Part shown: positions 1,794 to 41,896 of the stretch, piece after piece
How positions within the stretch are numbered: position 1 is the stretch's first letter
How the letters are laid out: the number at the start of each line of letters is the position of its first letter
Assembly: GCA_964561045.1 (NCBI GenBank)
Contig: CAZLOL010000001.1
Coordinates: 23,450-87,449, forward strand
Direction: 5' to 3'
DNA from: an uncultured Ignavibacteriaceae bacterium
Lineage (GTDB): Bacteria; Bacteroidota; Ignavibacteria; Tepidaquicellales; Tepidaquicellaceae
Length of the DNA stretch: 64,000 nucleotides
Notes under the pieces: model-generated
What the model was told of the DNA's origin: nothing
What the model saw: only the letters and a program-made list of their open reading frames with translations
Databases searched by the model: none
Position numbers and translations under genes: made by a program

Positions 1794-1803
1794 AAAATAT
1801 ACT

Positions 1804-9564: not shown

Positions 9565-9611
9565 GAAATTATAAATATAAATTAAAAAAAATTAATTAGG
9601 AGAATTATAAA

Positions 9612-10250: not shown

Positions 10251-10252
10251 TA

Positions 10253-11987: not shown

Positions 11988-11989
11988 CT

Positions 11990-14356: not shown

Positions 14357-14367
14357 CAATAAATTTA

Positions 14368-14943
14368 ATGTCCATGAAAAATCCATTCTTAACAGGCGAA
14401 AAAATTTATTTATCTCCATTGACAAAAGAAGACATTTCTGCAGATTATATCGGCTGGCTTAATGACAGTGAAGTCTGTAAAGACAATTCACATGCAACAT
14501 TTCCTAATACTTATTCTAAAACTTTGTCCTATGTAGAATCTGTTGAGAAGAGCGGAAATGAAATTGTATTTGCAATCAGATGGAAAAAAAATGATATTCA
14601 CATCGGGAATATTTCATTGCAAAATATAAACTGGATAAACAGATCTGCGGAGATTGCCATAATAATCGGGAATAAGAAATACTGGAATAAAGGTGTTGGC
14701 AGTGAGGCATACAAACTTGTTATAGGATACGGATTCCGGACACTTAATTTAAACAGACTTTCTTCAGGGCAGACTGTAACTAACAGAGGAATGATAAGTG
14801 TCTGTGAAAAAAACGGATTGAAAAAGGAAGGAACTTTAAGAGAAGTATTATTCAAAAACGGAGAATACAATGACGCAGTGATATACTCAATTTTATTTAA
14901 AGATTTCAGGAAAAAAGCAAACATAAAACAAAATGAAGGATAA
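14368..14943 (+). CDS. GNAT family N-acetyltransferase (RimJ/RimL-like; PseH-like by context)
   Basis: Motifs IAIIIGNKKYWNKGVGSEAYKL and LNLNRLSSGQTVTNRGMISVCEKNGLKKEGTLRE. Confidence 0.8.
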   Translation: MSMKNPFLTGEKIYLSPLTKEDISADYIGWLNDSEVCKDNSHATFPNTYSKTLSYVESVEKSGNEIVFAIRWKKNDIHIGNISLQNINWINRSAEIAIIIGNKKYWNKGVGSEAYKLVIGYGFRTLNLNRLSSGQTVTNRGMISVCEKNGLKKEGTLREVLFKNGEYNDAVIYSILFKDFRKKANIKQNEG

Positions 14944-16132
14944 AGATTACGGAAAGCCTCAGATGGAAGGTGTACAGTATTGTATAAGATGCTGTATCCC
15001 TTCAACACAGGAGCTGGTAATGTTCGATGAAATGGGAATTTGTCAGGCATGTCAGTCATCCGAGCAGAAGATACACATCAACTGGGTTGAAAAGGAAAAG
15101 AAGTTAAGAGAGATATTAGAGAATGCAAAAGCTAAAGCAGGAAGCAACTATGACTGCATTGTTCCTATCAGCGGCGGCAAGGACAGTACTTTTCAACTTT
15201 ATGTATTGACTCAGATATACGGAATGAAACCTCTCGCAGTAACATTCAGCCATAACTGGTACAGTGAAACAGGGTGGTATAATCTTTTAAATTCTCTTGA
15301 AAAATTTAATGTTGATCACATCATGTTTACACCTAACAGGGATCTTGTAAACAGAATAGCAAAGCGGTCACTTGAGGCAATAGGAGATACTTGCTGGCAT
15401 TGTCATGCAGGAGTAGGTGCATTTCCTCTTCAGGTAGCTGTAAGATTCAATATTCCCCTTTTGATTTACGGAGAATCAATAGCTGAATCATCAGGAAGAT
15501 CTTCTTATAAAAATCCTCTGATGGAATTCAATGTAGATTATTTCATGAAGGTCTCTACAAAGCGGAATCCAAGAGAGATGGTATGCAGCTATATTTCGGA
15601 AAAAGACATGAAGCCTTTCTTTTTTCCGACAATTGAAGAACTGGAAACAGCGGGTGTCAGACTAATGCATCTCGGAGATTACATTTTCTGGGATGATGAG
15701 AGACAGATGGAATTTGTAAGAGATAATTACGGATGGAAGGAGACAGAAGTTGAAGGTACTTATAAAGGATATAAAAGTGCAGAGTGCATTATGCCGGGAA
15801 TGCATGATTTTACAAACTATCTTAAGCGCGGATACGGGAGGTCAACATATCAGGCAAGTGTGGATGTCAGGAATGGTTTGCTTTCGAGGGATGAAGGTTT
15901 CGAATTATCAAGAAAATATGACAGTGAGATCCCCGAGTCACTTGAATATTATCTTAAAATAACCGGCATGACAAAGGAGGAATTTTATGAAATGATGTTG
16001 GAAAAAAGATTACCTGAGATCAAGCATTTACAGCTGCCTGTGACAGTCAAATCAAGAAAGAACAAAGAGAGAATTTTACCATATCCGGAACAATTAATAG
16101 AAAAAGAGGAAAACAGAAGAAGCAATGAATGA
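14933..16132 (+). CDS. N-acetyl sugar amidotransferase (PP-loop; WbuX/WbpG/PseA family)
   Basis: A Cys-rich N-terminus (CIRCCIPS...GICQACQ) is followed by the PP-loop PISGGKDST. There is an 11-nt overlap with the upstream GNAT gene. Confidence 0.8.
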   Translation: MKDKDYGKPQMEGVQYCIRCCIPSTQELVMFDEMGICQACQSSEQKIHINWVEKEKKLREILENAKAKAGSNYDCIVPISGGKDSTFQLYVLTQIYGMKPLAVTFSHNWYSETGWYNLLNSLEKFNVDHIMFTPNRDLVNRIAKRSLEAIGDTCWHCHAGVGAFPLQVAVRFNIPLLIYGESIAESSGRSSYKNPLMEFNVDYFMKVSTKRNPREMVCSYISEKDMKPFFFPTIEELETAGVRLMHLGDYIFWDDERQMEFVRDNYGWKETEVEGTYKGYKSAECIMPGMHDFTNYLKRGYGRSTYQASVDVRNGLLSRDEGFELSRKYDSEIPESLEYYLKITGMTKEEFYEMMLEKRLPEIKHLQLPVTVKSRKNKERILPYPEQLIEKEENRRSNE

Positions 16133-17516
16133 TACACTTAGTAAGATAGAAAAAAATATTTTTCTGGAACAAAGCATTAAGGAAATTACTGAAAAAATTT
16201 CTTCCGGGGAAATTACTCCTCTTGACATTGCACTTGAAAGCATAGAGCGGATCGAGAAGTATAACGAGAGATACAAAGTATGGGTTTGTTATGACAGAGA
16301 AATTCTTTTTAAGCAGGCAATGAAAATTTCAGAGAGACTGAATGAGGGCGGTAAGATTAGAGCATTGGAAGGAATACCTGCTGGTATAAAAGATATTTTC
16401 AATACATATGATTTTCCGACACAGATGGGAAGTCCTTTATGGCAGGGATTTACGTCGGGAAATGACTCAAGGGTTGTATATTATCTGAAACAGGCAGGAG
16501 CAGTAGTGCCGGGAAAGACAGACACCGCAGAATTTGCAGTACATGCAATCGGAAACTGTCTGAATCCTCATGATATAACAAAAACACCCGGAACCTCATC
16601 AAGCGGATCTTCCGTAGCAGTTTCACTAGGAATGGTACCTGTCTCAATAGGAACACAAACAGCAGGCTCGATAGTGAGACCAGCAAGTTTCTGCGGAGTT
16701 TACGGTTGCAAGCCTTCATTCGGACTTATTCCAAGGACCGGAATGCTGAAGACAACTGACAGTTTGGATACAATTGGATTTTTTACTTCTAAATATGAAG
16801 ACCTTGAAAGAGTATTTGAAATTGTAAGAGTACACGGATCAAATTATCCGATAAGCAATGATGCATTGAGCGATAAAAAGCGGCAGAACAAGGCTGCGGA
16901 CAGAACATGGAAAATTGCCTTTGTGAAAACTCATACTTGGGATCATGCATTTGATTATGCTAAGGATGCTATTTTAAAATTTGTAAAAAAATTATCAGAA
17001 ACAGATGGCATAGAAATAACTGAGGCAGAATTACCTGAAGATATTCAGTCAGCACACAAAGTACATGAAAGAATTTATGACAAAACATTAGCATATTATT
17101 TTCAGGAAGAATTCAAAAAACCCGAGCATGTTTCATCTATAATGAACGAGATCATAAACAGAGGAAATCTGATCTCAGTAAGTGAATATCATCAGGCATT
17201 AAAAGATCAGGAAAAAATAGTATCCTGCATGGATGATTTCTTTGATGATCATGATATAATTGTTTCTTTGAGTACAGCAGGAGAAGCACCGGACAGAAAT
17301 GAAACAGAAAGACCTGATCCGTCCCTGATTTGGACATTATCGCATTTACCTGTAGTAAGTTCACCGGCATTTATTTCACCGGACGGATTACCATTTGGAG
17401 TACAATTTGCAGCCAGAAAATACAACGACCTGTTGTTATTCAGATTTTTAGACAGATTACGTGAATCTTGTCTTATACCTGATGGAGCAAACCCTCTTCC
17501 AAACGTACATCACTAA
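16125..17516 (+). CDS. Amidase-signature family enzyme (GatA-like amidase/glutaminase)
   Basis: The Ser-cisSer-Lys elements are intact: PAGIKDIF, GTSSSGSSVAV, GTQTAGSIVRPASFCG. The 8-nt ATGAATGA start/stop overlap with the amidotransferase gene indicates translational coupling. Confidence 0.85.
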   Translation: MNDTLSKIEKNIFLEQSIKEITEKISSGEITPLDIALESIERIEKYNERYKVWVCYDREILFKQAMKISERLNEGGKIRALEGIPAGIKDIFNTYDFPTQMGSPLWQGFTSGNDSRVVYYLKQAGAVVPGKTDTAEFAVHAIGNCLNPHDITKTPGTSSSGSSVAVSLGMVPVSIGTQTAGSIVRPASFCGVYGCKPSFGLIPRTGMLKTTDSLDTIGFFTSKYEDLERVFEIVRVHGSNYPISNDALSDKKRQNKAADRTWKIAFVKTHTWDHAFDYAKDAILKFVKKLSETDGIEITEAELPEDIQSAHKVHERIYDKTLAYYFQEEFKKPEHVSSIMNEIINRGNLISVSEYHQALKDQEKIVSCMDDFFDDHDIIVSLSTAGEAPDRNETERPDPSLIWTLSHLPVVSSPAFISPDGLPFGVQFAARKYNDLLLFRFLDRLRESCLIPDGANPLPNVHH

Positions 17517-17550
17517 TAAATTTCGAAACTCATTGAGTATAAAAGATCAA

Positions 17551-19197
17551 ATGAAAAGATTACTGCTTAGAAATAAATATGTCAAAAAATTAAACATTAG
17601 TCTCAAGCTTAAAAAATTTTATAGTAACGGATTAAAGGGGGATGAAAATTCATCCCGAGTATTATTCTGGTCTACTGGAGGAATGATAATTCAGACAAAT
17701 CTGGAAGCCGCTATTGCAGTTTCTTTAAAACTCAGGGGGCATAAAGTAAAAATGATTCTTTGTGACGGAGTATATAAAGCCTGTGCAAAGAGAGTGGATT
17801 TTCCTGATGTGCCAATAAATGACTGGGGTAAATTTTGCCGAAGCTGTATTCATCAGAATTCAAAACTGCTGGAAAGATTAGGAGTTGATATCGGCTATAT
17901 AGGTGAATATGTTTCTGAAGAGAAAGCTTTATTATTAAGGGAGAAAGCAGGAAAAGTAAATTTTGATAATTACAGAAATCTATCTTATGATGGAATTGAA
18001 CTGGGAAGTCATCTGGAATCCGCAATGACAAGACATACAAGAGGAGGTTCATTTGAAGGTCTGGAATATTTACTTAAAGAGTATGCATTTGCAGTTTTAG
18101 TAAATGCTGAAGCGGCAAAAAATGCAATGAATGAATTCAAACCTGAAAGAGTATATATGTCACACGGAATTTATGCCGACTGGGGTCCTGCTTTAAGCGT
18201 ATTCCTGCACAATAAGATTCCGATTGTCTCATACATTTGCTGTTATCTGGCAGCGCATTTTTTCTTCGGAACTGTCAGGGAGCTCAAGGAGACTTTTTTA
18301 ACGATAAGCGAAAGCTCCTGGAATAAAAATAAGGAAGCAGAGCTTACAGAATTAAAATTAAAGAGGTTAAGTAATTTTCTTGACAGAAGATATTTAAGCA
18401 ATGTAACTCATGACATGAAAGGACTTCTTAAAGATTTCACCGGAGACAAAGAAATTTATTATAAAAAATACGGGCTTAACAGGAACAAAAAAGTCTGGGG
18501 AATTATGACTCATATTAACTGGGATGCAGCCTCAGATTATTTCGGAATGATACATAAAAATTTTGATGAATGGCTTTATGATACGATAAAAGTAATTTAC
18601 AACATAACAGATGTTCAATGGTTAATAAAAATACATCCATCGGAGCTTAATGATAACCCCGAAACCGGATGCCAGAAATTCATTGAGAATAATTTTCCTG
18701 ATCTGCCGTCTCATATAAAAGTAGTAAAAATGGATGATGACATAAGCCCTCTAGATTTTTATAATCTGTTAGACGGAGGAGTGACAGTAATGGGAACGGG
18801 CGGTCTGGAGTTAAGTTTAAAAGGGAAACCTGTTATACTTGCCGGCGATGCACATTATTCGGGCAAAGGTTTTACCAATGATGCAACAGACAAAACGAAT
18901 TACAGAAAATTGTTATATGAAACATTGAGCATGGAAAAATTAGATCCGGAGAAAATTTTATTAGCATCAAAGTATGCATATATATATTTTATACAGAAGC
19001 AGATACCCTTGCTGCCAACAATTTCTGAAGAACTTCTGATTGATTTCAGTAAATTAAATTATCTGATCCCTGGGCACAACAAATTCATGGATTTTGTATG
19101 TGAAAAATTAATAAGCGGTGAAGATTTCATTCTTCCCGAAGAACTGGTTGAACTGACACATATAACAGACCTTGATCAGATTAGACAATCCGCATAA
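17551..19197 (+). CDS. Capsule_synth-like (KpsC/KpsS-type) putative keto-sugar-acid transferase
   Basis: The ORF-track start 17461 overlaps the amidase gene, whereas ATG 17551 (MKRLLLRNKY) follows its stop. The C-terminal half, WLIKIHPSE...TVMGTGGLELSLKGKPVILAGDAHYSGKGFT, resembles the KpsC/KpsS pattern. Confidence 0.45.
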   Translation: MKRLLLRNKYVKKLNISLKLKKFYSNGLKGDENSSRVLFWSTGGMIIQTNLEAAIAVSLKLRGHKVKMILCDGVYKACAKRVDFPDVPINDWGKFCRSCIHQNSKLLERLGVDIGYIGEYVSEEKALLLREKAGKVNFDNYRNLSYDGIELGSHLESAMTRHTRGGSFEGLEYLLKEYAFAVLVNAEAAKNAMNEFKPERVYMSHGIYADWGPALSVFLHNKIPIVSYICCYLAAHFFFGTVRELKETFLTISESSWNKNKEAELTELKLKRLSNFLDRRYLSNVTHDMKGLLKDFTGDKEIYYKKYGLNRNKKVWGIMTHINWDAASDYFGMIHKNFDEWLYDTIKVIYNITDVQWLIKIHPSELNDNPETGCQKFIENNFPDLPSHIKVVKMDDDISPLDFYNLLDGGVTVMGTGGLELSLKGKPVILAGDAHYSGKGFTNDATDKTNYRKLLYETLSMEKLDPEKILLASKYAYIYFIQKQIPLLPTISEELLIDFSKLNYLIPGHNKFMDFVCEKLISGEDFILPEELVELTHITDLDQIRQSA

Positions 19198-19227: not shown

Positions 19228-19911
19228 ATGATTTTAATCACAGGAGCTTCCAGGGGAATCGGAAAATTCCTATTTGGTGAGTTTATTAAGGCAGGAGAAG
19301 AAGTGTACGGTACATATTATTCTGAGAACAAAGAGTTTGAAAATAATGACAGATATTTCCGGCTGGATGTTTCAGACTATGAGCAGGCGGAAAAGACAGT
19401 CAGCAGACTGGAAGAAAAAATAAATAAATTTAAATTAATAAACTGCGCCGGGAATAATTACAGTTGTTTCACACATAAGTCTTCTCCTCAAAAATGGAAT
19501 GACGTGATTGTTACAAATCTTATCGGAACATACAACATGATCCGTGCTTCATTACCAATTATGAGGGAGCAAGGTTACGGAAGGATAATAAATTTCTCAT
19601 CAATTGTTGCAGAAACCGGAATACCGGGAACAAGCGCATATGCAGCATCCAAAGCAGGGTTGTGGGGAATGACAAGAAGCATAGCCGTGGAGAATGCAAT
19701 GAAAGGAATCACAATTAATAATTTGAATTTAGGATATTTTGATATCGGAATGATAGAAGAAGTAAGTGAGGAATATCAGAAGATAGTAAAGAGTAAAATC
19801 CCGACCGGTAAATTCGGTGATCCAAAAAATATTTACAATGCTGTGAAATTCATTATAGACTCTGAATATATTAACGGAACTTCAGTGGATATAAACGGAG
19901 CAATATATTAA
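19228..19911 (+). CDS. Classical SDR (FabG-like reductase)
   Basis: Motifs ILITGASRGIGK, NCAGN and YAASKAG. Confidence 0.85.
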   Translation: MILITGASRGIGKFLFGEFIKAGEEVYGTYYSENKEFENNDRYFRLDVSDYEQAEKTVSRLEEKINKFKLINCAGNNYSCFTHKSSPQKWNDVIVTNLIGTYNMIRASLPIMREQGYGRIINFSSIVAETGIPGTSAYAASKAGLWGMTRSIAVENAMKGITINNLNLGYFDIGMIEEVSEEYQKIVKSKIPTGKFGDPKNIYNAVKFIIDSEYINGTSVDINGAIY

Positions 19912-19936: not shown

Positions 19937-20926
19937 ATGAAAGTCTCAGTCATCATAACAACTTATAACAGAGCAGGAATAATACCAATGTGCATGGATT
20001 CACTGATCAAACAGAATTTTCCTAAATCAGATTATGAAATTATAATAGTAAATAATAATTCATCTGATAATACTGAAGAAGTAATTGAAAATTATATTGA
20101 GAAATATCCTGATACAAATATAAAATATTACTATATACCAAAACCAGGACAGGTATATGCCAGGCAGATAGGAATTCTTGCTTCGCAATATGAGATACTT
20201 AGTTTTACTGATGATGACGGAATCCTTTCACCTGACTGGATTCGGGAAATAGTAAATGCATTTGAACTTAACAAGAATGCTGTTGGTGTAGCAGGAAAGA
20301 TAAATATCAAGTGGGATGAGCCGCCTCCCGAATGGATTTATGAATACGAAAACTATCTCGGCAAACTTGATTACGGTGATGAAATAAAATTTGAAAAAGG
20401 AATGTATATGAATGCCGGAAATTTAAGCATTAAAAAAGATGTGCTTATAGAAGTAGGCGGATTCAATCCTGAAATGATCGGCGACTGGCTTGTTGGTGAT
20501 GGGGAAACGGGACTTTGGATAAAATTAAAAAAGAAAGGGTACATCATTGGATGGGCACCAAAAGCATTAATGGAGCATTACCAGATAGCTAAAAAAAATG
20601 CAACGGTTGAGGATATAAAAAGAAGATTTATTAATAACGGGATATGCATTCCTTATAATATATATGCTATTGATAAGGAAGGAAATATGGCATTGTTAAA
20701 AAACATGTTTTTTTCTTTTAAGCATAAACTTAAGTGGTATTTAAGAATACTGAAATTCAGAGTTAAAGGGGATGAGAAAAACAAAAATTATTCGATTTTC
20801 AGAGAAGCCTTTTATTCTGCTCAGATAAATTACACTTTAAAATTAATTTTTGACAAAGAATTCAGATCAGCGTTAACAAAAGGTGACTGGTTAATTACAA
20901 AACAAAAGGAGAATGTCATAGCATGA
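19937..20926 (+). CDS. Glycosyltransferase family 2
   Basis: Motifs [42 protein letters not shown] and FTDDDG. Confidence 0.85.
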
Positions 20927-22224
20927 GTAAAACAGTATATGTAGGAATGAGCGCAGACCTTATTCACCCCGGTCATCTGAATATAATAAATGAAGCCAGG
21001 AAGTTAGGTGAAGTCACGATCGGCTTGCTGACAGACAGGGCAATTGCGAGTTATAAGAGACTTCCTTTTCTGACTTATGAACAGAGAAAGCTGATCATAG
21101 AGAACATCAAAGGTGTTCATATAGTAATACCACAGGAAACTTTAGATTATGTTCCCAATTTGAAATTAACAAAGCCGGATTATGTTGTTCATGGTGACGA
21201 CTGGAAAACCGGAGTTCAGAAACAGACCAGGGATAAAGTAATTGAGGCTCTGAAGGAATGGGGAGGAAAATTAGTTGAAGTAGAGTATACGAGAGGAATC
21301 TCATCTACACAAATGATAAACAGTCTGAAAGAAATAGGGACTACACCGGAGATAAGAATGAAAAGATTAAGAAGGTTACTTGAAGTAAAGCCTATAGTTA
21401 GATTAATAGAAGCTCACAACGGATTAACAGGGCTGATCGCAGAAAACATTCAGACAATAAAAGACAATCAGCCAAGAGAGTTTGACGGAATGTGGCTGAG
21501 CAGTCTTACAGATTCGACAGCAAAAGGCAAGCCTGATATTGAGGCAGTTGATGTAACGGCAAGGATGCAGACGCTGAATGATATAGTAGAAGTAACAACC
21601 AAGCCGATCATATATGACGGAGATACAGGCGGCCGAGCCGAGCATTTTGTTTTTACCGTAAAGACGCTTGAGCGTCTTGGAGTGTCAGCAGTGATAATTG
21701 AAGATAAGATCGGTTTAAAAAAGAACTCTCTTTTTGGAACAGACGTGGATCAAACGCAGGACAGTATTGAGGATTTCAGCCATAAACTATCAATGGGAAA
21801 GAAGTCTCAGATCACAAAAGAATTTATGATCATCGCAAGAGTAGAAAGTCTGATTTTAAAAAAGGGAGCAGATGATGCGCTGACTAGATCCAAAGCTTAT
21901 ATTGAGGCAGGTGCAGACGGCATAATGATACACAGCAAAGAAAAGAAACCGGACGAGATACTAGAATTCTGTAAAGGATATAAGAGCTTTGAAAAGAAAG
22001 TACCGCTGGTAGCCGTTCCTTCTTCATATAATACTATTTATGAAAAAGAACTTATTGAAGCCGGTGTAAATATTGTAATTTATGCGAATCAGTTATTACG
22101 AAGTGCATATCCTGCAATGGTTGATACTGCAAAATCTATTCTTGAAAATGAAAGATCTTACGAAGCTGACAGCAGTATGATGCCGATAAATGAGATACTA
22201 AACTTAATTCCGGGCGGAAAATAA
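20923..22224 (+). CDS. ppm: Bifunctional HIGH-type cytidylyltransferase / phosphoenolpyruvate phosphomutase
   Basis: The N-terminal ~130 aa, [23 protein letters not shown], are TagD/ECT-like with an HxGH motif. The C-terminal domain carries [13 protein letters not shown] and [13 protein letters not shown], the EDKxxxxxNS PEP mutase discriminator. There is a 4-nt overlap with the upstream GT2 gene. Confidence 0.85.
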
Positions 22225-22227
22225 TTC

Positions 22228-23355
22228 ATGATTAGTCCCAAGAGATTTTTTGAGATATTAAACAGCAACGGCATAAATTTTTTTACTGGTGTTCCTGATT
22301 CTCTGTTAAAAGATTTTTGTGGATACGTGACGGATAATGTTTCAGAGAAAGATCATATAATAAATTCAAATGAAGGTGCTGCAATAGCATTAGCTAGCGG
22401 ACATTACATTGCAACCGGAAAACCTGGACTGGTCTATATGCAGAATTCCGGATTAGGGAATGCAGTCAACCCATTGCTTTCTTTAGCTGATTCCGAAGTT
22501 TACAGCATCCCTATTCTTTTGGTAATTGGCTGGAGAGGTGAGCCGGGAAAGAAAGATGAACCACAGCATATAAAACAGGGAAAGGTCATGCTGGATTTGC
22601 TGAAAGCTATGAATATCAGTTATGATATAATTAACAGTTCGACCTGCAACATAGAAGAGATATTAAGAAAAGCATATTCAGCGATGACAGAACTATCATG
22701 TCCGTATGCATTGATAATTTCAGAAGGATCATTTGAAGAATACAAGATGGTCCATGATATGCAATCAGATTATCAGTTTAACAGAGAAGAAGCCATTAAG
22801 TTAATACTGGATGATCTCAGCAATAATGAAATTATAGTTTCCACAACCGGTAAAACATCAAGGGAAGTATTTGAGTACAGGAAAAAGAATAATCAGGGAC
22901 ATCAGAATGATTTTCTGACTGTCGGATCAATGGGACATTGTTCACAGATCGCGCTTGGTATTGCCCTTGAGAAAAACAGAAAACAAGTTTACGTATTAGA
23001 CGGTGACGGAGCTGTAATCATGCAGATGGGATCACTTGCAATATTAGGAAGCGAAGCTCCGGAAAACTTCAGGCATATATTACTTAATAATGGTGCTCAT
23101 GACTCGGTAGGCGGACAGCCGACTGCCGGGTTCAAAACTGATTTTTCTGCAATAGCTAATGCCTGCGGATATAATCTTGCGATCAGAGCAGAGACCGAAA
23201 AGGAGATAAAGGACGGATTATCAAAGATGAAAGAAATACCGGGACCGGCATTCCTTGAGATCAGAGTTAATAAAGGAGCACGAAAAGAACTGGGAAGACC
23301 TACATCAACTCCTTTGGAGAATAAATTAACTTTAATGGATAATCTTTTAAAATGA
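22228..23355 (+). CDS. ppd: Phosphonopyruvate decarboxylase (ThDP-dependent)
   Basis: The N-terminus reads INFFTGVPDSLLKDFCGYV. The ThDP motif is LDGDGAVIMQMGSL...LLNNGAHDSVGGQPT. It follows ppm directly. Confidence 0.85.
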   Translation: MISPKRFFEILNSNGINFFTGVPDSLLKDFCGYVTDNVSEKDHIINSNEGAAIALASGHYIATGKPGLVYMQNSGLGNAVNPLLSLADSEVYSIPILLVIGWRGEPGKKDEPQHIKQGKVMLDLLKAMNISYDIINSSTCNIEEILRKAYSAMTELSCPYALIISEGSFEEYKMVHDMQSDYQFNREEAIKLILDDLSNNEIIVSTTGKTSREVFEYRKKNNQGHQNDFLTVGSMGHCSQIALGIALEKNRKQVYVLDGDGAVIMQMGSLAILGSEAPENFRHILLNNGAHDSVGGQPTAGFKTDFSAIANACGYNLAIRAETEKEIKDGLSKMKEIPGPAFLEIRVNKGARKELGRPTSTPLENKLTLMDNLLK

Positions 23356-24488
23356 TTCAGGCTGAATATTCCGGAACAGGCTGCATAAAAAATCTTACAG
23401 AAATATTATCAAACATAAAACCCCGGAATATATTTCTAGTTGCAGGGAAAAATTCATACAAAACATCCGGAGCTGAAGGAATACTTGGTGAATTATTAAA
23501 TGAATATACAGTAACACTCTTTAATGAAGTCAGCGGTGATCCTTTAATCGAAAACATTATTAAAGGGATGGATATTTTTTTAGAATCAGATTGTGACATA
23601 GTTATAGCTATCGGCGGCGGAAGTGTAATAGATACGGCAAAATCAATAAATGTTTTAAGCAGTCAGGAAATAAATCCTAGGCATATTATAGAAGGCAAGG
23701 AGAAGATAGTAAATAAAGGCAAACCATTGATTGCAATACCAACTACATCCGGAGCCGGCAGCGAGTCTACACATTTTGCAGTTATTTATATGGAGAAAGA
23801 GAAGTATTCTTTGGCACATGAATATATTTTACCTCAATATTCAATTGTTGATCCGCAGCTTACTTTTGATCTGCCTTCAGGAATTACGGCAACATCAGGA
23901 ATAGATGCATTCTCACAGGCTATAGAATCTTTCTGGAATGTAAATGCGAATGATGAATCAAGAGAATATTCTGAAAAGGCAATCAAGCTTATCCTTGAAA
24001 ATATTAAGTCTGCTGTAAATGAACCAACGGAATACAGCAGGGAAAATATGTCAAAAGCCGCACATCTTGCCGGGAAAGCAATCAACATTACAAAGACAAC
24101 CGGTCCGCATGCAGTATCATACGCAATGACTTCATATTACGGGATACCTCACGGGCAGGCGGTTAGCGTCACACTTGCGGAATTTCTGGAATTTAATTTT
24201 AATGTAACGGAATCAGATCTAATGCCCGGGTTAAATTTAAATGAAGTCAGAGCTAGCCATGAAAAACTTCTGAGGATACTTAAATGCAGAGATATTAGTG
24301 AAGGAAAAAATCTAATCAATGAACTGATTAAATGTATCGGATTAAAAACAAAATTATCCGAGCTCAACATCAGGTCACAGGAAGATCTAAAGATAATTAT
24401 TGAAAGTGTAAACTTAGAAAGATTAATGAACAATCCGAGATCAGTTTCTAAAGAAGACCTTGGCAGAATATTAGAAAAAATTTTATAG
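23352..24488 (+). CDS. Group III iron-containing alcohol dehydrogenase; phosphonoacetaldehyde reductase by context (2-hydroxyethylphosphonate-forming)
   Basis: Motifs IAIGGGSVIDTAKS, IAIPTTSGAGSESTHF and IPHGQAVS. A 4-nt overlap links it to ppd. The family call is firm, but the substrate is inferred from position. Confidence 0.65.
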   Translation: MIQAEYSGTGCIKNLTEILSNIKPRNIFLVAGKNSYKTSGAEGILGELLNEYTVTLFNEVSGDPLIENIIKGMDIFLESDCDIVIAIGGGSVIDTAKSINVLSSQEINPRHIIEGKEKIVNKGKPLIAIPTTSGAGSESTHFAVIYMEKEKYSLAHEYILPQYSIVDPQLTFDLPSGITATSGIDAFSQAIESFWNVNANDESREYSEKAIKLILENIKSAVNEPTEYSRENMSKAAHLAGKAINITKTTGPHAVSYAMTSYYGIPHGQAVSVTLAEFLEFNFNVTESDLMPGLNLNEVRASHEKLLRILKCRDISEGKNLINELIKCIGLKTKLSELNIRSQEDLKIIIESVNLERLMNNPRSVSKEDLGRILEKIL

Positions 24489-25685
24489 TTGAGTCCGAAG
24501 AAGAATTCCTTATCAAAAATCCTTGAAATGAAACTAAGGATGCTCATTGACAGAATAAAAGGAAAAAAAATTATAATTCTGGATATTGAGGAAACATCTT
24601 TCATTCCTTACATACTTCCGATATACAATGCTTTGATTAAAAAGACAAACAGAATTTCTTATTACATTGCAACTCACTATGAAGGAAATGAGCAGCTGAA
24701 GGAATTCAACATCCCTCTGAAAAAACAGTTCAATGTAAATCTTAGCAGGGAATTCGGCAGTGCTGATATATTCTTATCACCACATATATATGGTATAGGG
24801 AACATCAGATCAAAAAAAATTCACATTAATCATAATCAGCCGGTAAAATATGAATCCTATCAGAAAAATGATTTCGTCAATTTTGACGTTCACTTTCTCA
24901 CGAGTCCTTTACACCGCGATCAGACAGAGAATACAATTAAAAAATATAATCTTGAGGACAGGGATATTAAATTATATAATATCGGTTATTCAAAATCCGA
25001 TGCTCTTTTACAGGGTAAATATAGCAGGGAAGATGTAATAAATCAATTAAAGCTAAATCCTTTATTTAAAACTGTTTTATATGCTCCTTCCTGGGATGAG
25101 GGGCTTTCATTAAGAACATTCGGAGAAGATGTGATTAATAATATTTTAGAAATTCAAAATATTAATTTGATTGTTAAGCTTCATCCAATAAGCTATTGTC
25201 CGGCTGACGGACCTAATTATTTATTTTATACCGGCGGAATTGACTGGGTAAAAAGTTTTTCAAAATATAATTCATATCCGAACTTCAGACATATTCCTTC
25301 AAATAATATTGATCCTTTGCTAACTGCTGCTGATGTAATGGTTACAGATCTCAGCAGTGTTGCTCTTGAGTTCATAATGCTGGACAAACCTGTTATATAT
25401 ATTGACTGCCCGGAATTTTTTGAGAAGACACTGAAGAAAACTTATTCAAACTTTGGAGATACAACGGAAGAATTTGTAAGAAACGATCCGAAAGCAAATG
25501 CAGGAAGACATGTAGGATATGTAATTTCCGGTCCGGATAAATTGCCTGAAGCAATAAGAAAATGTCTCGATAATCCGGAAGAGTTATCCGGCAAAAGAAA
25601 GGAGTTTGCGGGGCAGCTTAGTTACAATCCCGGCAATGCTTCAAATATTGCAGCGCAAAAAATTTTAGAAATTCTCGGTATATGA
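24489..25685 (+). CDS. CDP-glycerol glycerophosphotransferase family (TagB/TagF-like) transferase
   Basis: The TTG start lies on the base after the upstream stop; an alternative ATG is at 24528. Motifs IVKLHP and ADVMVTDLSSVALEFIMLDKPVIYIDCPEFF form the Glyphos_transf C-terminal pattern. Confidence 0.6.
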   Translation: MSPKKNSLSKILEMKLRMLIDRIKGKKIIILDIEETSFIPYILPIYNALIKKTNRISYYIATHYEGNEQLKEFNIPLKKQFNVNLSREFGSADIFLSPHIYGIGNIRSKKIHINHNQPVKYESYQKNDFVNFDVHFLTSPLHRDQTENTIKKYNLEDRDIKLYNIGYSKSDALLQGKYSREDVINQLKLNPLFKTVLYAPSWDEGLSLRTFGEDVINNILEIQNINLIVKLHPISYCPADGPNYLFYTGGIDWVKSFSKYNSYPNFRHIPSNNIDPLLTAADVMVTDLSSVALEFIMLDKPVIYIDCPEFFEKTLKKTYSNFGDTTEEFVRNDPKANAGRHVGYVISGPDKLPEAIRKCLDNPEELSGKRKEFAGQLSYNPGNASNIAAQKILEILGI

Positions 25686-26500
25686 CAGACACTATTAATC
25701 CGGCAGATATAATTCAAAAAGCAGTAACTGATCTTGCAGCTTCATGGAAAGAGAGCGGAATTGAAGAGGGAGATACGGTTCTGCTGCACAGTTCACTTTC
25801 CGGATTTATAAAAAAATACAGAACAGAGGGGATTCCAATCTTACCCAATGATATTCTGAAGTCATTCATGATTTCTGCAGGAGAAAAAGGGACACTGATC
25901 TTTCCGACATATAATTTTGATTTTACAAAGGGCAGGACATTCGATATTCTGAATACAAGATCAGAAACCGGAGCATTGTCCGAAGCAGCAAGACTTCATC
26001 CTGAGTCTGTAAGAACAGGTCATCCTCTTTTTTCATTTGCCGTAATCGGATATCACAGGAATATTTTTGAGGATCTCAGCAATTACAGCGCATTCGGGAA
26101 GGATTCGCCTTTTGCAAAACTGCTTGAGCTAAAGGGGAAAATAGCTGCGCTTGATGTTGCAGGGGAAAACTGCATGACATTTTATCATCATGTGGAAGAG
26201 ATGGAAAATGCACCAAACAGATACCATAAGATATTCAGAGGAAATTACATAGATAAGCACGGAGTCCAAAGTGAAAAAGAATTTAATGTTTACTCACGAA
26301 AAATTGATGAGGGAGTTGAGACGGATGTCAAGCCAATGGAAGAATATCTTTGGTCAAAGAGAATGTATTCTGGAAACCGGCCAGGAGAAGGAAACTGTCT
26401 TCATGTGATCAAAGCTGAAAGGGTTTATGAAGAAGCATCCGCAGTCATAAGAGGAGGAAGATCACTTGGTATGCTTTATAAAATCACTAAAGACAATTGA
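25682..26500 (+). CDS. AAC(3)-family (aminoglycoside 3-N-acetyltransferase-like) N-acyltransferase
   Basis: Motifs VLLHSSLSGF, GTLIFPTYNFDF and TGALSEAARLHPESVRTGHPLFSFAVIG. There is a 4-nt overlap with the upstream gene. Confidence 0.6.
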   Translation: MTDTINPADIIQKAVTDLAASWKESGIEEGDTVLLHSSLSGFIKKYRTEGIPILPNDILKSFMISAGEKGTLIFPTYNFDFTKGRTFDILNTRSETGALSEAARLHPESVRTGHPLFSFAVIGYHRNIFEDLSNYSAFGKDSPFAKLLELKGKIAALDVAGENCMTFYHHVEEMENAPNRYHKIFRGNYIDKHGVQSEKEFNVYSRKIDEGVETDVKPMEEYLWSKRMYSGNRPGEGNCLHVIKAERVYEEASAVIRGGRSLGMLYKITKDN

Positions 26501-27780
26501 AGGAACAGATCGAAAAATATTTTGACAGATTATGGCCGCTGAACAGAAGCCTGACGGGCAATGGAAACCGTGAGACACTAAAAATATTATCAGAGTTAGC
26601 AGATATAAAGATCACAGAAGTCCCGTCAGGAACTGAATGCTTTGACTGGACAGTTCCTCCTGAATGGAATGTAAAAGAAGCCTGGATAAAGGACAGCAAT
26701 GGAAATATAATAGCAGATTTCAGTGCTAACAATTTGCAACTGCTTGGATATTCTGAAAAATTCTCAGGACATTTAAGTTTGAATGAGTTAAAAGAGCATC
26801 TGTATTCTTTGCCGGAACAGCCCGAAGTAATTCCATATCTTACCTCTTATTATAAAAAGCGATGGGGATTTTGCATTAGTCATAATCAGCTTATTAAATT
26901 AAAGGAAGGAACTTATGAAGTATTAATCGATTCTGAATTAGATCAGGATGGATCTATGACAATTGGTGAAGCAATTCTGGATGGAGACACAGACAAAGAA
27001 ATTTTATTATCCACTTATATATGCCATCCATCAATGGCAAACAATGAACTCTCCGGACCATTGACCGCTTCATTTATTTACAAAAAATTAAAAGAAAAGA
27101 AAAACAGAAGATATACTTACAGAATACTTTATGTTCCTGAAACCATCGGCAGCATTTATTATTTATCCAGGCACGGAGATCATTTGAAAAAAAAATTAGC
27201 AGCAGGATTTGTAATAACTTGTGCGGGTGACAAAGGTAATTTCACTTACAAGAAGAGCAGATCCGGAAATACAGTAACAGACAGAGCTTCAGAGCTGATC
27301 TTGAAAGAGACGGAAAGAAATTATAACATTGAAGATTTTTTTCCTACCGGCAGTGATGAAAGGCAGTATTGTTCACCAGGATTTAATCTCCCTGTCGGGT
27401 CATTAATGAGAACAAGATACGGAAAGTATAAAGAATATCACACTTCTGCCGATAATAAAGAATTTATTTCTTTCAAAGCAATGGAGGAATCAGTTTATAA
27501 GTATCTTGAAATATTAGATTTAATTGAAAATAATTTTACATACATCAACAGACTGCCTCACTGTGAACCTCAGCTTGGGAAGCGAGGACTTTATCCTACA
27601 TTAGGTTCGCAAAAAGATACTGCTGAATTTGTAAATGCCTTAATGTGGGTATTGAATTTAACAGACGGTTCAAATGATCTTATAGATATTTCAAACAGAA
27701 GCAGCATACCAGTTAAAGTTATGATCAAAGCTGCGGAAGGGCTGCTGAGTAGCGGACTAATTGAAATCAAATCTGAATAA
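26497..27780 (+). CDS. Aminopeptidase-like (M28-related) domain protein, DUF4910/COG4310-like
   Basis: TTGA start/stop overlap. Motifs YFDRLWPLNRSLTGNGNRETL, EVPSGTECFDWTVPPEWN and ICHPSMANNELSGP. Confidence 0.5.
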   Translation: MKEQIEKYFDRLWPLNRSLTGNGNRETLKILSELADIKITEVPSGTECFDWTVPPEWNVKEAWIKDSNGNIIADFSANNLQLLGYSEKFSGHLSLNELKEHLYSLPEQPEVIPYLTSYYKKRWGFCISHNQLIKLKEGTYEVLIDSELDQDGSMTIGEAILDGDTDKEILLSTYICHPSMANNELSGPLTASFIYKKLKEKKNRRYTYRILYVPETIGSIYYLSRHGDHLKKKLAAGFVITCAGDKGNFTYKKSRSGNTVTDRASELILKETERNYNIEDFFPTGSDERQYCSPGFNLPVGSLMRTRYGKYKEYHTSADNKEFISFKAMEESVYKYLEILDLIENNFTYINRLPHCEPQLGKRGLYPTLGSQKDTAEFVNALMWVLNLTDGSNDLIDISNRSSIPVKVMIKAAEGLLSSGLIEIKSE

Positions 27781-27791
27781 ATGAAATTGCA

Positions 27792-28781
27792 GTGGTAAAA
27801 TATTTAATCACAGGATCATCGGGATTTGTAGGGAAGAATTTTTTAGAATATCTGAATGATAATACATCAGATACTTCCGTACTTGGAATTGACATTGCTG
27901 AAACTGAGTACAATACGAAGGAATACAGTAATCTTAAGTTTAAATTTGTAAGAGCTGATTTAAGAGAGAGGGACAAGGTCAGCAAGCTTATTTATGATTT
28001 CAATCCGAAATATATACTTCATCTTGCTTCATACAGCAGTGTAGCAGGAAGCTGGAGAAATCCAAACAATTGTTTCCAGAATAATGTGAATATCTTTTTA
28101 AATCTACTTGAAGATATAAGAAAGACCGGTACTGACTGCAGAATTATTTCTGTAGGTTCTTCGGATGTATACGGGATCGTAAAATTTTCAGAACTGCCGA
28201 TAAGGGAAGAGCAGTGTTTGAATCCATTGAGTCCTTTTGGAATCGCCAGACAAAGCCAGGAATTACTTTCACAACTGTATTCTAATATATACGGAATGGA
28301 CATAGTAATTACAAGATCATTTAATCATATAGGTCCCGGTCAGAATGAGAGTTTTGCAATATCATCTTTTGCAAAACAGATAATGGATTTAAAAAGAAAT
28401 AACGGAAATGAATTCATAGTAACAGGAGATGTATCCGTAGTAAGGGATTTCATTGATGTCAGGGATGTGGTTAGGGCATATCATCAGTTATTTTTAAAAG
28501 GTAAAAGAGGTGAGATCTATAATGTATGCAGCGGTTGTGGAATTTCCCTGCACAATATAATACAGATGCTTTGTGAAATTATGGACATCAGATTCAGCAT
28601 CAGGGAAGATAAAAAATTAAGAAGACCGGCGGATATACCTGTGATTGTGGGATGCAATGACAAGTTAAAGAAACAGACAAGCTGGACAAACGAAATAATG
28701 CTTGAGGACAGCCTGAGAGATATTCTGAAATATTATTTAAACCGTGATATTAAAGTCAAGAAGCCAGTGTACAGAAATTAA
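27792..28781 (+). CDS. Extended SDR (NAD-dependent epimerase/dehydratase fold) with non-canonical active-site residues
   Basis: GTG start. The fold motifs ITGSSGFVGKNF, VGSSDVYG and RSFNHIGPGQ are present. However, the YxxxK position reads SPFGIARQ (cct ttt gga atc gcc aga). Confidence 0.75.
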   Translation: MVKYLITGSSGFVGKNFLEYLNDNTSDTSVLGIDIAETEYNTKEYSNLKFKFVRADLRERDKVSKLIYDFNPKYILHLASYSSVAGSWRNPNNCFQNNVNIFLNLLEDIRKTGTDCRIISVGSSDVYGIVKFSELPIREEQCLNPLSPFGIARQSQELLSQLYSNIYGMDIVITRSFNHIGPGQNESFAISSFAKQIMDLKRNNGNEFIVTGDVSVVRDFIDVRDVVRAYHQLFLKGKRGEIYNVCSGCGISLHNIIQMLCEIMDIRFSIREDKKLRRPADIPVIVGCNDKLKKQTSWTNEIMLEDSLRDILKYYLNRDIKVKKPVYRN

Positions 28782-28816: not shown

Positions 28817-29537
28817 ATGAGCGTCGTTATAAAAGCAGAAAATATATCAAAACTTTACAGACTTGGGATTCTTTCTTCAAGAACCATTGCTCAGGATGTT
28901 AATCGTTTTATTGCGAGGATTAGAGGTAAGGAAGATCCTTATTTGAAAGTTGGTGAAATAAATAACAGAGAAAAAAAAAGCAGCGGTCAGTTTATATGGG
29001 CATTAAAGGACATTAATTTTAAAATTAATTCAGGTGAAATAATCGGTATAATCGGAAAAAACGGAGCTGGTAAATCAACATTATTAAAGATCTTATCTAG
29101 AGTTACAACACCGACAACAGGTAATGTCAGAATCAAAGGAAGAGTTGCAAGTCTACTGGAAGTTGGAACCGGCTTTCATCAGGACCTTAGCGGAAAAGAA
29201 AATATATTTCTGAACGGTTCAATACTTGGCATGACAAAAAATGAAATAAAGTCAAAGTATGATGAGATAGTTGAGTTCTCCGGTGTGGAAAAATTTATTG
29301 ATACACCTGTAAAAAGATATTCATCAGGAATGTATGTAAGGCTTGCATTTGCAGTTGCAGCATATTTAGAACCGGAGATATTAATAGTTGATGAAGTATT
29401 AGCCGTAGGCGATGCAGAGTTTCAAAAAAAATGTCTTGGGAAAATGCACGATGTGTCAGCTAAGGAAGGAAGGACGGTAATTTTTGTAAGCCATAATATG
29501 GGAGCAGTCAGGAGTCTTTGCACTTCATCAATTTTAC
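28817..29537 (+). repeat. Paralogous wzt NBD-coding segment, copy 2 of 3 (end approximate)
   Basis: Nucleotide-identical runs with copy 1, and a protein colinear with copies 1 and 3. Confidence 0.7.
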
Positions 29538-30109
29538 TTGAAAGAGGGATGATAAAGAACATCGGGAATACAGAAAGTATAATAACTGAATATCTTAATA
29601 TAAGTTCGGAAAACTTTGAAGCATACAGAGAATTCAATGATCAGAATTCAGAGACTTACTTTAAAAAAATATCAGTGAAACCTGAAAATTCAAACTTTGC
29701 ATGCAGTGAAATAGAAGTATTGAAATCATTTAATGTTGAATTTAATTATTTTCTGAAAAAAAATATTCCCGGTCTAAGTCTTGGATTTTCAATTTATTCA
29801 AAGAACGGAATGAAAATACTTTACGACTCACAGGCAGTTAAAAAGCTTTCAGGAGATGCGGAAAACAGATCCGGATATTTCACAGCGGAAGTAACAATTC
29901 CGGGCATGTTTCTTGCACCCGGCAGTTATTTCATTAATGCAGCACTTCATATAGAAAATGTGCAGCTTCTTGATTTTAAAGAAAATGTAATAAGTTTCAA
30001 CATTATTGAAAGCGGCTCACAGCTTCAAAAATTCAGCGGAAAAGATATGGGTGTAATCATAGCTGATTTCAAATGGAGAAGTATAAATGAAAACATTACA
30101 ACTAACTAA
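28817..30109 (+). CDS. wzt: Wzt/TagH-type ABC exporter ATP-binding protein with distinct C-terminal domain, copy 2 (no adjacent permease)
   Basis: Motifs MSVVIKAENISKLYRLG, GKNGAGKST, YSSGMYVRLAFAVAA, ILIVDEVLAVGDAEFQKKCLGK and FVSHN. The C-terminal ~180 aa are unlike those of copies 1 and 3. Confidence 0.9.
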   Translation: MSVVIKAENISKLYRLGILSSRTIAQDVNRFIARIRGKEDPYLKVGEINNREKKSSGQFIWALKDINFKINSGEIIGIIGKNGAGKSTLLKILSRVTTPTTGNVRIKGRVASLLEVGTGFHQDLSGKENIFLNGSILGMTKNEIKSKYDEIVEFSGVEKFIDTPVKRYSSGMYVRLAFAVAAYLEPEILIVDEVLAVGDAEFQKKCLGKMHDVSAKEGRTVIFVSHNMGAVRSLCTSSILLERGMIKNIGNTESIITEYLNISSENFEAYREFNDQNSETYFKKISVKPENSNFACSEIEVLKSFNVEFNYFLKKNIPGLSLGFSIYSKNGMKILYDSQAVKKLSGDAENRSGYFTAEVTIPGMFLAPGSYFINAALHIENVQLLDFKENVISFNIIESGSQLQKFSGKDMGVIIADFKWRSINENITTN

Positions 30110-32425: not shown

Positions 32426-33146
32426 ATGAGCGTAGTTATAAGAGCAGAGAACATTTCTAAACTTTACAGGTTAGGGATAATAACCTCAAAGTCCATAGCA
32501 CAGGATCTAAACCGGTTTATTGCCAGGATAAGAGGAAAAGAAGATCCTTATTTAAAAGTTGGACAGTTAAATGAAAGAGATAAGAAAACCGAAGGTCAGT
32601 TTGTCTGGGCGCTGAAAGATATAAATTTCGAAGTTCTGGACGGTGAGATTCTTGGGATCATAGGAAATAACGGAGCAGGTAAATCGACATTATTAAAAAT
32701 ATTATCACGAGTTTCATCGCCTACTACAGGTGATATTAAAATAAAAGGGAGAGTAGCAAGCCTTCTGGAAGTTGGCACGGGATTTCATCCTGAGCTTACC
32801 GGTACAGAGAATATATTCCTTAACGGATCAATCCTTGGAATGACAAGAAATGAAATAAAAAAAAAATTCGATGAGATAGTGGACTTTTCTGGAGTTGAGA
32901 AATTTATAGACACACCCGTAAAAAGATATTCATCGGGAATGCATGTACGGCTGGCGTTTGCTGTTGCAGCTCATCTTGATCCTGAAATACTTATTGTAGA
33001 TGAAGTGCTTGCCGTCGGTGATGCGGAATTTCAGAAGAAATGTCTTGGAAAGATTCAGGATGTTTCGAGTAAAGACGGGAGAACAGTTTTGTTTGTGAGT
33101 CATAATATGGCTGTATTGTCAAATTTATGTTCATCTGTAATCGTAC
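32426..33146 (+). repeat. Paralogous wzt NBD-coding segment, copy 3 of 3 (end approximate; most diverged at third codon positions)
   Basis: The protein is colinear with copies 1 and 2, but the nucleotide similarity is visibly lower. Confidence 0.6.
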
Positions 33147-40821: not shown

Positions 40822-40852
40822 TGTTTTCATTATGAATAAAGTGAGATAACAG

Positions 40853-41890: not shown

Positions 41891-41896
41891 TTATTA

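Follow-up and report, generated by a model that had tools for sequence, protein, structure and literature searches.

Bacterial phosphonate genes are mostly thought to decorate cell surfaces. In the Pnt pathway, phosphoenolpyruvate (PEP) mutase (Ppm), phosphonopyruvate decarboxylase (Ppd) and a 2-aminoethylphosphonate (AEP) transaminase are combined with PntC, a LicC-like nucleotidyltransferase of family PF12804, and with a proposed LicD transferase (Rice et al. 2019, PMC6697681). Surveys from 2019 and 2022 call the steps by which phosphonates become attached to glycans enigmatic and suggest only LicD-like proteins for them (PMC6697681, PMC8942020). Here we describe a 64-kb stretch of contig CAZLOL010000001.1 from an uncultured Ignavibacteriaceae bacterium (the window, numbered from its first letter) in which four consecutive genes encode a Ppm with a fused cytidylyltransferase domain, a Ppd, an Fe-type alcohol dehydrogenase (Fe-ADH) and a protein related to TagF. 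We consider it likely, from sequence comparison and gene context, that this cassette makes 2-hydroxyethylphosphonate (HEP) and activates it as HEP-CMP, and that the TagF-like enzyme would then esterify HEP onto a glycan exported by an ATP-binding cassette (ABC) transporter.

Described systems bear on both halves of this proposal. The PhpC type accounts for about 8.5% of ppm neighbourhoods (PMC6697681, PMC8942020), and HEP esterified to polysaccharide has been identified chemically in actinomycetes and in seawater, in work cited in PMC8942020 and PMC13576164. Fom1 has been demonstrated to convert CTP and HEP to CMP-HEP (Cho et al. 2017, as summarised in PMC6697681), and the same summary gives Fom1 as the only fusion of a PF01467 domain to Ppm with a shown activity. 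In TagF, H444 within the WHG motif is the likely base and H584 binds diphosphate, while the 380-aa TagF-like enzyme Cps7A adds a single glycerol phosphate to the beta-linked 3-deoxy-D-manno-octulosonic acid (beta-Kdo) that is made by KpsS/KpsC (PMC11666461).

The cassette and its predicted donor

The coordinates that the original prediction gave for the four genes, all on the + strand (Table 1), agree with the list of open reading frames (ORFs) and their translations, in which each of the motifs it named can be read: HPGH, IEAHNGL, EDKxxxxxNS, the thiamine diphosphate (ThDP) motif GDG-x25-NN and DVMVTDLSSVALEFIMLDKPVIYID. The ORF of the TagF-like gene is likewise where it was placed; its start directly after the ADH stop is the uncertain part of that account, because many orthologues begin at a Met equivalent to the ATG at 24540, which corresponds to a protein of 381 aa, and not at the TTG at 24489. 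Overlaps of 4 nt join the gene for a GT2 glycosyltransferase to ppm, ppd to the ADH gene, the TagF-like gene to an N-acyltransferase (NAT) gene, and the NAT gene to a DUF4910 gene. All seven consecutive genes from the GT2 gene (starting at 19937) to the DUF4910 gene (ending at 27780) are connected by such overlaps or by gaps of 0-3 nt, and this run is very probably a single transcription and translation unit. Scans for promoters and terminators gave counts at chance level and were not used. The relatives of the encoded proteins come almost entirely from metagenome-assembled genomes (MAGs) of Ignavibacteria.

The first protein combines the Pfam families PF01467 (aa 10-132) and PF13714, with the cytidylyltransferase domain spanning aa 4-138 and the PEP mutase spanning aa 149-431. 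The mutase, in which the EDKxxxxxNS motif lies, scores 398 bits against the NCBIfam equivalog TIGR02320 (cut-off 319.6) and so belongs to the Ppm family. Likewise, the second protein scores 493 bits against the equivalog TIGR03297 (cut-off 312.5) and contains the ThDP domains PF02776 and PF02775 with the GDG-x25-NN motif, placing it in the Ppd family. The cytidylyltransferase domain (aa 4-138) aligns without gaps to the cytidylyltransferase (CyTase) domain of Fom1 (PDB 5X3D) with 92 identities in 135 positions (68%, E 4e-61, 210 bits), and reaches only 38 bits against the glycerol-3-phosphate cytidylyltransferase TagD (1COZ). Because the domain resembles Fom1 far more than TagD, an enzyme that uses only glycerol-3-phosphate is strongly disfavoured. 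With its HPGH (HxGH) motif, its fusion to Ppm and its close similarity to the Fom1 CyTase domain, it has the features of a Fom1-type enzyme, and the prediction that it converts HEP and CTP to HEP-CMP is well supported. The suggestion that the fused domain makes a CMP-phosphonate is thus among the comparatively well founded parts of the original prediction.

The third protein belongs to families PF00465 and PF25137. Its best NCBIfam match is TIGR03405, a model for phosphonate-associated Fe-ADHs that now carries the name of PsrA of Burkholderia, at 211 bits against a cut-off of 423.7; the profile searches bear out the family calls made for Ppm, Ppd and the transferase (Glyphos_transf), all of which exceed their thresholds, and that of an Fe-ADH, which stays below the cut-off of this one model. 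PhpC enzymes reportedly diverge strongly, with identities of 27-39% (PMC13576164). The closest PDB match of the ADH is 6JKO/6JKP, and 6JKO is the Bifidobacterium sulfoacetaldehyde reductase that served as the structural reference for PhpC in a 2026 study of HEP dehydrogenase (PMC13576164). The metal ligands are Asp/His/His/His in PhpC and Asp/Gln/His/His in sulfoacetaldehyde reductase, and a Tyr that forms a hydrogen bond to the phosphonate (Tyr264 in P. fungorum PhpC) is strictly conserved in PhpC and is Phe in sulfoacetaldehyde reductases (PMC13576164).

When the ADH is aligned to 6JKO, the metal-site residues are D185, Q189, H253 and H267, and the Tyr/Phe position, which is F265 in 6JKO and Tyr264 in PhpC, is occupied by Y257. 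All 31 orthologues compared, which come from three phyla, share D185, H253, Y257 and H267, whereas position 189 varies: Ignavibacteria have Gln there, and Gemmatimonadota and Elusimicrobia have His. Proteins with the NCBI annotation 'phosphonoacetaldehyde reductase' in Fulvitalea axinellae and Segatella copri have the same residue pattern. The gene directly adjoins ppd, and, because the metal ligands and Y257 match the PhpC signature, we accept the ADH as a PhpC-type phosphonoacetaldehyde reductase that would give HEP, despite the missed TIGR03405 cut-off.

The identity of this third enzyme is what separates HEP from AEP, the commonest surface phosphonate. Clusters of the AEP type also contain PF01467-Ppm fusions (PMC8942020), so the type of the cytidylyltransferase domain is by itself no proof of HEP, and AEP could be the decoration if a transaminase were encoded elsewhere in the genome and the Fe-ADH had another role. 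The earlier observation that no AEP transaminase adjoins the cassette extends to the entire 64 kb, in which there is no class-V (PhnW/AepZ-type) transaminase and the aminotransferases are three DegT-type sugar enzymes only, a check that covered the window. However, a reductase with the PhpC signature stands between Ppd and the transferase, translationally coupled, in every locus. Moreover, all six PF01467-Ppm contexts examined (Ignavibacteria, Elusimicrobia, Chloroflexota, Fulvitalea and Segatella) contain the reductase and no transaminase nearby, as judged for Fulvitalea and Segatella from the annotated stretches around the cassette. AEP decoration is thus very improbable.

A Fom1-type fusion and a FomC-type reductase are also the enzymes of the first steps of fosfomycin synthesis (PMC6697681), and HEP-CMP might accordingly lead on to a diffusible, fosfomycin-like phosphonate instead of serving a glycan decoration. 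The window, however, contains no Fom3-like radical-S-adenosylmethionine (SAM) methyltransferase, epoxidase, FomD-like hydrolase, resistance or kinase genes, and no MpnS/HEPD-like protein, radical-SAM enzyme of any kind or PhnX/PhnA/PhnY is found in the 64 kb. Furthermore, in every lineage the cassette sits among glycan genes and is translationally coupled to them. We give a diffusible product hardly any credence.

The TagF-like enzyme and the proposed attachment step

Given a predicted HEP-CMP donor, the fourth protein is the candidate for the enzyme that uses it. It scores 46.2 bits against PF04464 Glyphos_transf (gathering threshold 22.1). A PDB search with the single sequence returned nothing relevant, and a profile of its 17-member family identified TagF (E 3e-8), the TagF-like capsule polymerase Cps3D (5e-8) and TarL (2e-3). 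An AlphaFold2 model built from the same alignment (pLDDT 88.8, pTM 0.88) has a two-Rossmann GT-B fold whose top Foldseek match is TagF (3L7J/K/L, E 4e-12, TM-score about 0.6), with UDP-GlcNAc 2-epimerases, TarL, Bcs3 and Cps3D as lower matches. A score above the gathering threshold together with a GT-B fold closest to that of TagF indicates that the protein is a member of the TagF family. The residues invariant in the family alignment are H115 (N-H-N-Q-P-x-K), Y198-A-P-x-W202, K230-L-H232-P and D287-x-S289-S290...E294, and in an alignment with the canonical PF04464 protein of S. copri, H115 falls on the histidine of WHG (H-N-Q-P-V-K versus H-G-N-P-I-K). Fold, conserved residues and gene context, and these only, lead us to predict a TagF-like GT-B enzyme that acts as a HEP-phosphonyl transferase.

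A comparative scan with one genome per species yielded 38 loci encoding TagF-like relatives, which are 62-80% identical in Ignavibacteria, 47-49% in Gemmatimonadota and 53% in Elusimicrobia. The Fe-ADH gene lies directly upstream of the TagF-like gene in all 30 loci whose upstream flank reaches 1.2 kb or more, and all 28 whose flank reaches 3.8 kb or more contain a PEP mutase. A Chloroflexota MAG and a JGI contig of Gemmatimonadota-like character carry these four genes as well, and the cassette is usually found beside genes for nonulosonic acids (NulO). The cassette is therefore a discrete and conserved unit spanning Ignavibacteria, Gemmatimonadota, Elusimicrobia and Chloroflexota, which is new here. 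In one Elusimicrobia locus (L036 8232-9890) small ORFs take the place of an intact Ppd and the Fe-ADH has only 290 aa; either the cassette is decaying there or the assembly is at fault.

Individual components of the cassette are exchanged in some lineages. In Gemmatimonadota the mutase lacks PF01467 and carries a C-terminal PF12804 (LicC/PntC-type) nucleotidyltransferase instead, which is a non-orthologous replacement that keeps the chemistry. A second PF12804 gene stands between Ppd and the ADH (L031 5345-8873; L045 3393-6846), and the two enzymes may make two different CMP-activated species. Segatella (Prevotella) copri is cultured and abundant in the human gut, and its type strain DSM 18205 carries the cassette on a 167-kb replicon (NZ_CP085933.1 122052-127526; L047). 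There the cassette encodes a PF12804+PF01467+Ppm triple fusion, Ppd, the reductase and a canonical, full-length PF04464 protein (219 bits) that is remote from the TagF-like protein (hhalign 82%), and is followed by Wzy and Wzx genes. The gene order within a glycan locus is thus the same as in the window, whereas the window has a simpler fusion, a divergent TagF-like protein and Wzm/Wzt in place of Wzx/Wzy. We found no paper on phosphonate in S. copri. Plasmid pFA2 of Fulvitalea axinellae (NZ_AP025316.1 288548-293006; L046) encodes a cytidylyltransferase-Ppm fusion 67% identical to that of the window, Ppd and the reductase, with a LicD-family gene on the opposite strand in place of the TagF-like gene. 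The Fulvitalea trio adjoins plasmid replication genes and not a glycan locus.

Enzymes of both the LicD and the TagF families move the distal phospho-group of a CDP-alcohol. Because the two families share this transfer, the simplest common reading of the variants is that the enzyme in the transferase slot takes HEP-CMP. That PF12804 can replace the nucleotidyltransferase and canonical PF04464 or LicD can fill the transferase slot, with the chemistry kept, argues for the proposed pathway, and together with the unbroken ADH adjacency it gives comparatively good support to the earlier idea that the TagF-like enzyme installs the CMP-phosphonate on a polysaccharide.

The conservation data also bear on a more conventional explanation, in which the protein carries out ordinary CDP-glycerol or CDP-alcohol chemistry with a donor made elsewhere and adjoins the phosphonate genes only through a shared glycan context. 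This would agree with its public annotation as a 'CDP-glycerol glycerophosphotransferase family protein' and with one fused homologue that has no Ppm within 8 kb (described below). However, apart from the Ppm-fused domain, which is far closer to Fom1 than to TagD, no TagD-type or IspD-type enzyme is found in the 64 kb, and the order of ADH followed by TagF-like gene is kept without exception in several phyla. In addition, phosphonate-free NulO loci with KpsC-like, NAT and DUF4910 genes show no TagF-like gene, and a LicD occupies the same slot in Fulvitalea. We consider this explanation quite improbable.

In the pathway that we propose, Ppm would convert PEP to phosphonopyruvate and Ppd would decarboxylate it to phosphonoacetaldehyde, pulling the unfavourable mutase reaction forward, after which the PhpC-type reductase would produce HEP. 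The Fom1-type domain would then join HEP and CTP to give HEP-CMP, a CDP-alcohol analogue with the phosphonate as its distal phosphorus. In the TagF-like enzyme, H115 as the base would activate a hydroxyl of a lipid-linked glycan, which would attack the phosphonate phosphorus so that CMP is released and the product is the mono-ester glycan-O-P(O)(O-)-CH2CH2OH, and the finished glycan would be exported through Wzm/Wzt. The first two of these predicted steps draw on equivalog-level family membership, the reductase and cytidylyltransferase steps on signature residues and on the 68% identity to a characterised domain, and the transfer step and its acceptor on the structural and contextual considerations given above.

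Several features of the transferase weigh against this pathway, as do the occurrence of PF01467-Ppm fusions in AEP clusters and the scope of the transaminase check. Its PF04464 match covers profile positions 145-308 only, about half of the Pfam model, and its identity to TagF is only about 16%. It has N-H-N where the family has WHG. H232 is the probable second catalytic histidine, but this depends on the alignment method, since K230-L-H232 falls on R-V-H of the S. copri PF04464 protein by hhalign and not by plain pairwise alignment. Finally, the Fe-ADH::TagF-like fusion P0261 (L048 8001-10409), which is encoded beside a Wzx-like flippase, has neither a ppm nor a ppd gene within 8 kb, and the GGGS and Asp ligand motifs are missing from its ADH domain.

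P0261 belongs to a sizeable subfamily. A profile search across 1.84 billion representatives found 257 TagF-like representatives (50% clustering) at E up to 1e-30 and 1033 at E up to 1e-10, among them the Fe-ADH::TagF-like fusions P0261 and P0262, a TagF-like::GT2 fusion (P0276) and several TagF-like::methyltransferase fusions (P0291, P0307, P0322). The fusions with SAM-methyltransferases recall WbdD-type capping enzymes of ABC-transporter O-antigen systems. We considered the ADH fusions as Rosetta stones for a functional link between the two enzymes and gave them little weight, given the degenerate-looking ADH domain of P0261 and its lack of a nearby Ppm; that fusion is weak support and a caution.

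As for the acceptor, the cassette recurs beside NulO genes in four phyla and, in the window, follows a gene for a KpsC-like transferase. For this reason a ulosonic-acid residue or the sugar next to it is the most likely acceptor, by analogy with Cps7A and from gene context.

The original prediction went further and speculated that HEP, which keeps a free hydroxyl, is transferred iteratively. HEP would then lie in the glycan backbone as poly(HEP); in a second version, which we add to that speculation, the enzyme would alternate with the GT2 enzyme and build poly(glycosyl-HEP). Either would be a C-P analogue of teichoic acid exported by Wzm/Wzt in diderms. The TagF family does include polymerases, the GT2 gene is translationally coupled to the cassette in the window and its homologue abuts the TagF-like gene in Chloroflexota, and the P0276 fusion resembles the GT plus TagF-like capsule polymerases of poly(glycosyl-polyol phosphate) (PMC5974469, PMC11666461). 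On the other hand, the 381-398 aa of the TagF-like protein make up a GT-B core and nothing more, additional N-terminal or tetratricopeptide repeat (TPR) domains being absent. Polymerase chains in the PDB are longer (729 residues for TagF, 583 for TarL and 1149 for Cps3D), whereas the single-addition enzyme Cps7A has 380 aa (PMC11666461). Furthermore, the S. copri cassette lies within a Wzx/Wzy repeat-unit locus, a GT2 homologue is also present in a NulO locus without phosphonate genes, and a natural poly(phosphonate ester) is not known. With a bare core of single-addition size and the S. copri context, the oligo(phosphonate-ester) chain has gained nothing from our analysis, and a phosphonate backbone appears unlikely.

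The surrounding glycan locus

The entire 64 kb forms one glycan locus on the + strand, with a G+C content of about 35% (Table 1). The NulO genes of the window include two that resemble CMP-ulosonic-acid synthetases, and many genes for glycosyltransferases, methyltransferases and formyltransferases are also present.

Table 1. Coordinates of the phosphonate cassette and of the glycan genes around it.
Feature	Position	Strand	Size or basis
Wzm permease	936-1793	+	ABC2_membrane PF01061
First Wzt with Wzt_C	1765-3135	+	PF00005+PF14524
NulO synthesis and tailoring module	8512-17516	+	Pfam, NCBIfam
KpsC-like (Capsule_synth) protein	17551-19197	+	weak PF05159; profile match to KpsC 6MGB, E 0.004
FabG-like short-chain dehydrogenase/reductase (SDR)	19228-19911	+	Pfam
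GT2 glycosyltransferase	19937-20926	+	Pfam; 4-nt overlap with first gene of the cassette
Ppm with fused cytidylyltransferase	20923-22224	+	433 aa
Ppd, phosphonopyruvate decarboxylase	22228-23355	+	375 aa
Fe-ADH, PhpC-type phosphonoacetaldehyde reductase	23352-24488	+	378 aa
TagF-like GT-B phosphotransferase, predicted HEP-phosphonyl transferase	24489-25685	+	398 aa, TTG start
AAC(3)-like NAT, DUF4910/DUF2172/HTH_47 protein, nucleoside diphosphate (NDP)-sugar epimerase/dehydratase	25682-28781	+	Pfam
Second Wzt with C-terminal carbohydrate-binding domain	28817-30109	+	PF00005+PF14524; after the module in most Ignavibacteria loci
Third Wzt with Wzt_C	32426-33715	+	PF00005+PF14524

The NulO module comprises genes for NeuB, a methyltransferase, a CMP-NulO synthetase, a GFO/IDH/MocA oxidoreductase, a DegT aminotransferase, an unknown gene product, a GNAT, a WbuX amidotransferase and an amidase. 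The KpsC-like gene that follows begins at 17461 in the mechanical ORF, and the public call is a protein of 548 aa (a 100% identical NCBI protein). KpsC-like homologues follow NulO genes both with and without a phosphonate cassette. The SDR and GT2 genes are both syntenic in Ignavibacteria loci, and the NAT/DUF4910 pair is also found beside the NulO module in loci that lack phosphonate genes.

Since the KpsC-like, SDR, NAT and DUF4910 genes and the adjacent Wzt gene are syntenic in Ignavibacteria and recurrent in Gemmatimonadota, they were initially taken as parts of a wider phosphonate module. We rejected this assignment because distant homologues of these genes are present in NulO loci without Ppm. 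Distant KpsC-like homologues (41-49% identity) follow genes for NeuB, CMP-synthetase, GFO, DegT, GNAT and amidase in loci without Ppm. One such locus, from Candidatus Aquicultor (L041), has no phosphonate genes and is colinear with window positions 8512-19197, and another Ppm-free locus carries SDR, AMP-ligase, NAT, DUF4910 and Wzt_C genes. The Ppm-free loci thus indicate that the KpsC-like, SDR, NAT, DUF4910 and Wzt genes constitute a NulO glycan module into which the four phosphonate genes have been inserted as a discrete cassette. That these genes form a terminal-cap system recognised by the binding domain of Wzt is for the same reason now conceivable at most, as they travel with NulO genes in Ppm-free loci.

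The Wzm/Wzt exporters that were noted alongside the cassette are real, in that the window encodes both an ABC-2 permease and ATPases with a Wzt_C domain. Their tie to the phosphonate genes is the weaker part of that claim, since Wzt travels with the NulO module in phosphonate-free loci. There are three Wzt ATPases, each with its own Wzt_C, and only one Wzm in the window; a polysaccharide pyruvyl transferase comes after the second Wzt, and a SAM methyltransferase after the third. Several differently terminated glycans may thus share one export channel.

The KpsC-like proteins form a family of roughly 550 aa with four invariant N-terminal cysteines, whose genes always follow NulO biosynthesis genes in several phyla (window 17461-19197; L041 10001-11710; L042 10001-11638; L043 8185-9816). 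They are a candidate new family of ulosonic-acid transferases and, in the window, may make the acceptor. A FabG-like SDR, an AAC(3)-like acyltransferase, a DUF4910/DUF2172/HTH_47 protein and sometimes an AMP-ligase and an ORF of roughly 95 aa recur with NulO genes, whether or not phosphonate genes are present (window 19228-19911 and 25682-27780; L042 13164-17870; L045 1-3064), and this set looks like an N-acylation (e.g. hydroxybutyryl) system for an amino sugar acid. Within the NulO module, positions 13310-14356 encode a 348-aa protein that has no Pfam match and scores 30 bits against the NCBIfam BFO_1060 family glycosyltransferase; the TagF-like protein gives the same weak match, and the 348-aa protein may be another divergent GT-B transferase. 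Finally, at 39889-43799, two formyltransferase-like genes flank a family-less ORF (40853-41890) and a FemAB-like gene (41897-42898), an arrangement that may point to N-formylation or aminoacylation of an amino sugar elsewhere in this locus.

Relation to known systems

The closest described relative of the first part of the cassette is the fosfomycin pathway. Fom1/FomC of Streptomyces wedmorensis and the enzymes of the window are alike in having an N-terminal PF01467 domain fused to PEP mutase together with a phosphonoacetaldehyde reductase of the Fe-ADH family, and because a Fom1-like fusion is paired with such a reductase, as in the fosfomycin pathway, one expects HEP-CMP to be made. The fosfomycin pathway uses the cytidylyl group only temporarily, as a handle for methylation by a radical-SAM enzyme, and removes it by hydrolysis afterwards, whereas such enzymes are absent from the window. 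Since a transferase follows instead of these methylation and hydrolysis enzymes, CMP would act as a leaving group for transfer to a glycan in the window.

The Pnt pathway shares the overall logic with the cassette, in that a phosphonate is made, activated with CTP and transferred to a cell-surface glycan, and in that the nucleotidyltransferase is fused to Ppm in both. The two differ in their components: Pnt uses AEP, PF12804 and a LicD-like protein, whereas the window would use HEP, PF01467 and a TagF-like protein, with Gemmatimonadota using PF12804 and Fulvitalea using LicD. The transfer step is a proposed one in both.

With TagF, TagB, TarF, TarL and Cps7A, the TagF-like enzyme shares the GT-B fold, the YAPxW motif and an SS...acidic motif, and probably also a His at the WHG position and a basic-x-His motif. 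It is most like Cps7A in its single-addition size, and the KpsC-like neighbour in the window recalls the action of Cps7A on the beta-Kdo of KpsS/KpsC (PMC11666461). Unlike the members of the TagF family, it is predicted to use a CMP-phosphonate and not CDP-glycerol or CDP-ribitol as its donor, and its predicted product is a C-P phosphonate ester. The host of the window is a diderm, glycan export would be by Wzm/Wzt, and the sequence is very divergent.

If the proposed pathway is correct, teichoic-acid-type chemistry would extend to C-P compounds, and the cassette would provide a genetic marker for HEP-bearing glycans, which is relevant to the marine phosphorus and methane cycles. The S. copri DSM 18205 cassette would then allow direct testing and may bear on surface antigenicity. 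In a search of the full-text literature for TagF or PF04464 together with phosphonate we found no paper making the link, which, given the limited coverage of subscription journals, is an absence of evidence only.

HEP-bearing polysaccharides were identified chemically, with no attaching enzyme named, whereas the window offers a candidate enzyme that is known from genes alone. HEP biosynthesis, CMP-HEP, HEP-bearing polysaccharides and the principle of activating with CTP and then transferring were already known (PMC6697681, PMC8942020). What the window adds is an enzyme of the TagF family whose predicted donor is a CMP-phosphonate, and this locus and its relatives point to a defined TagF-like subfamily as candidate phosphonyl transferases for the attachment step. 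A specialist would probably find this plausible rather than startling, and an acknowledged open step is thereby made directly testable.

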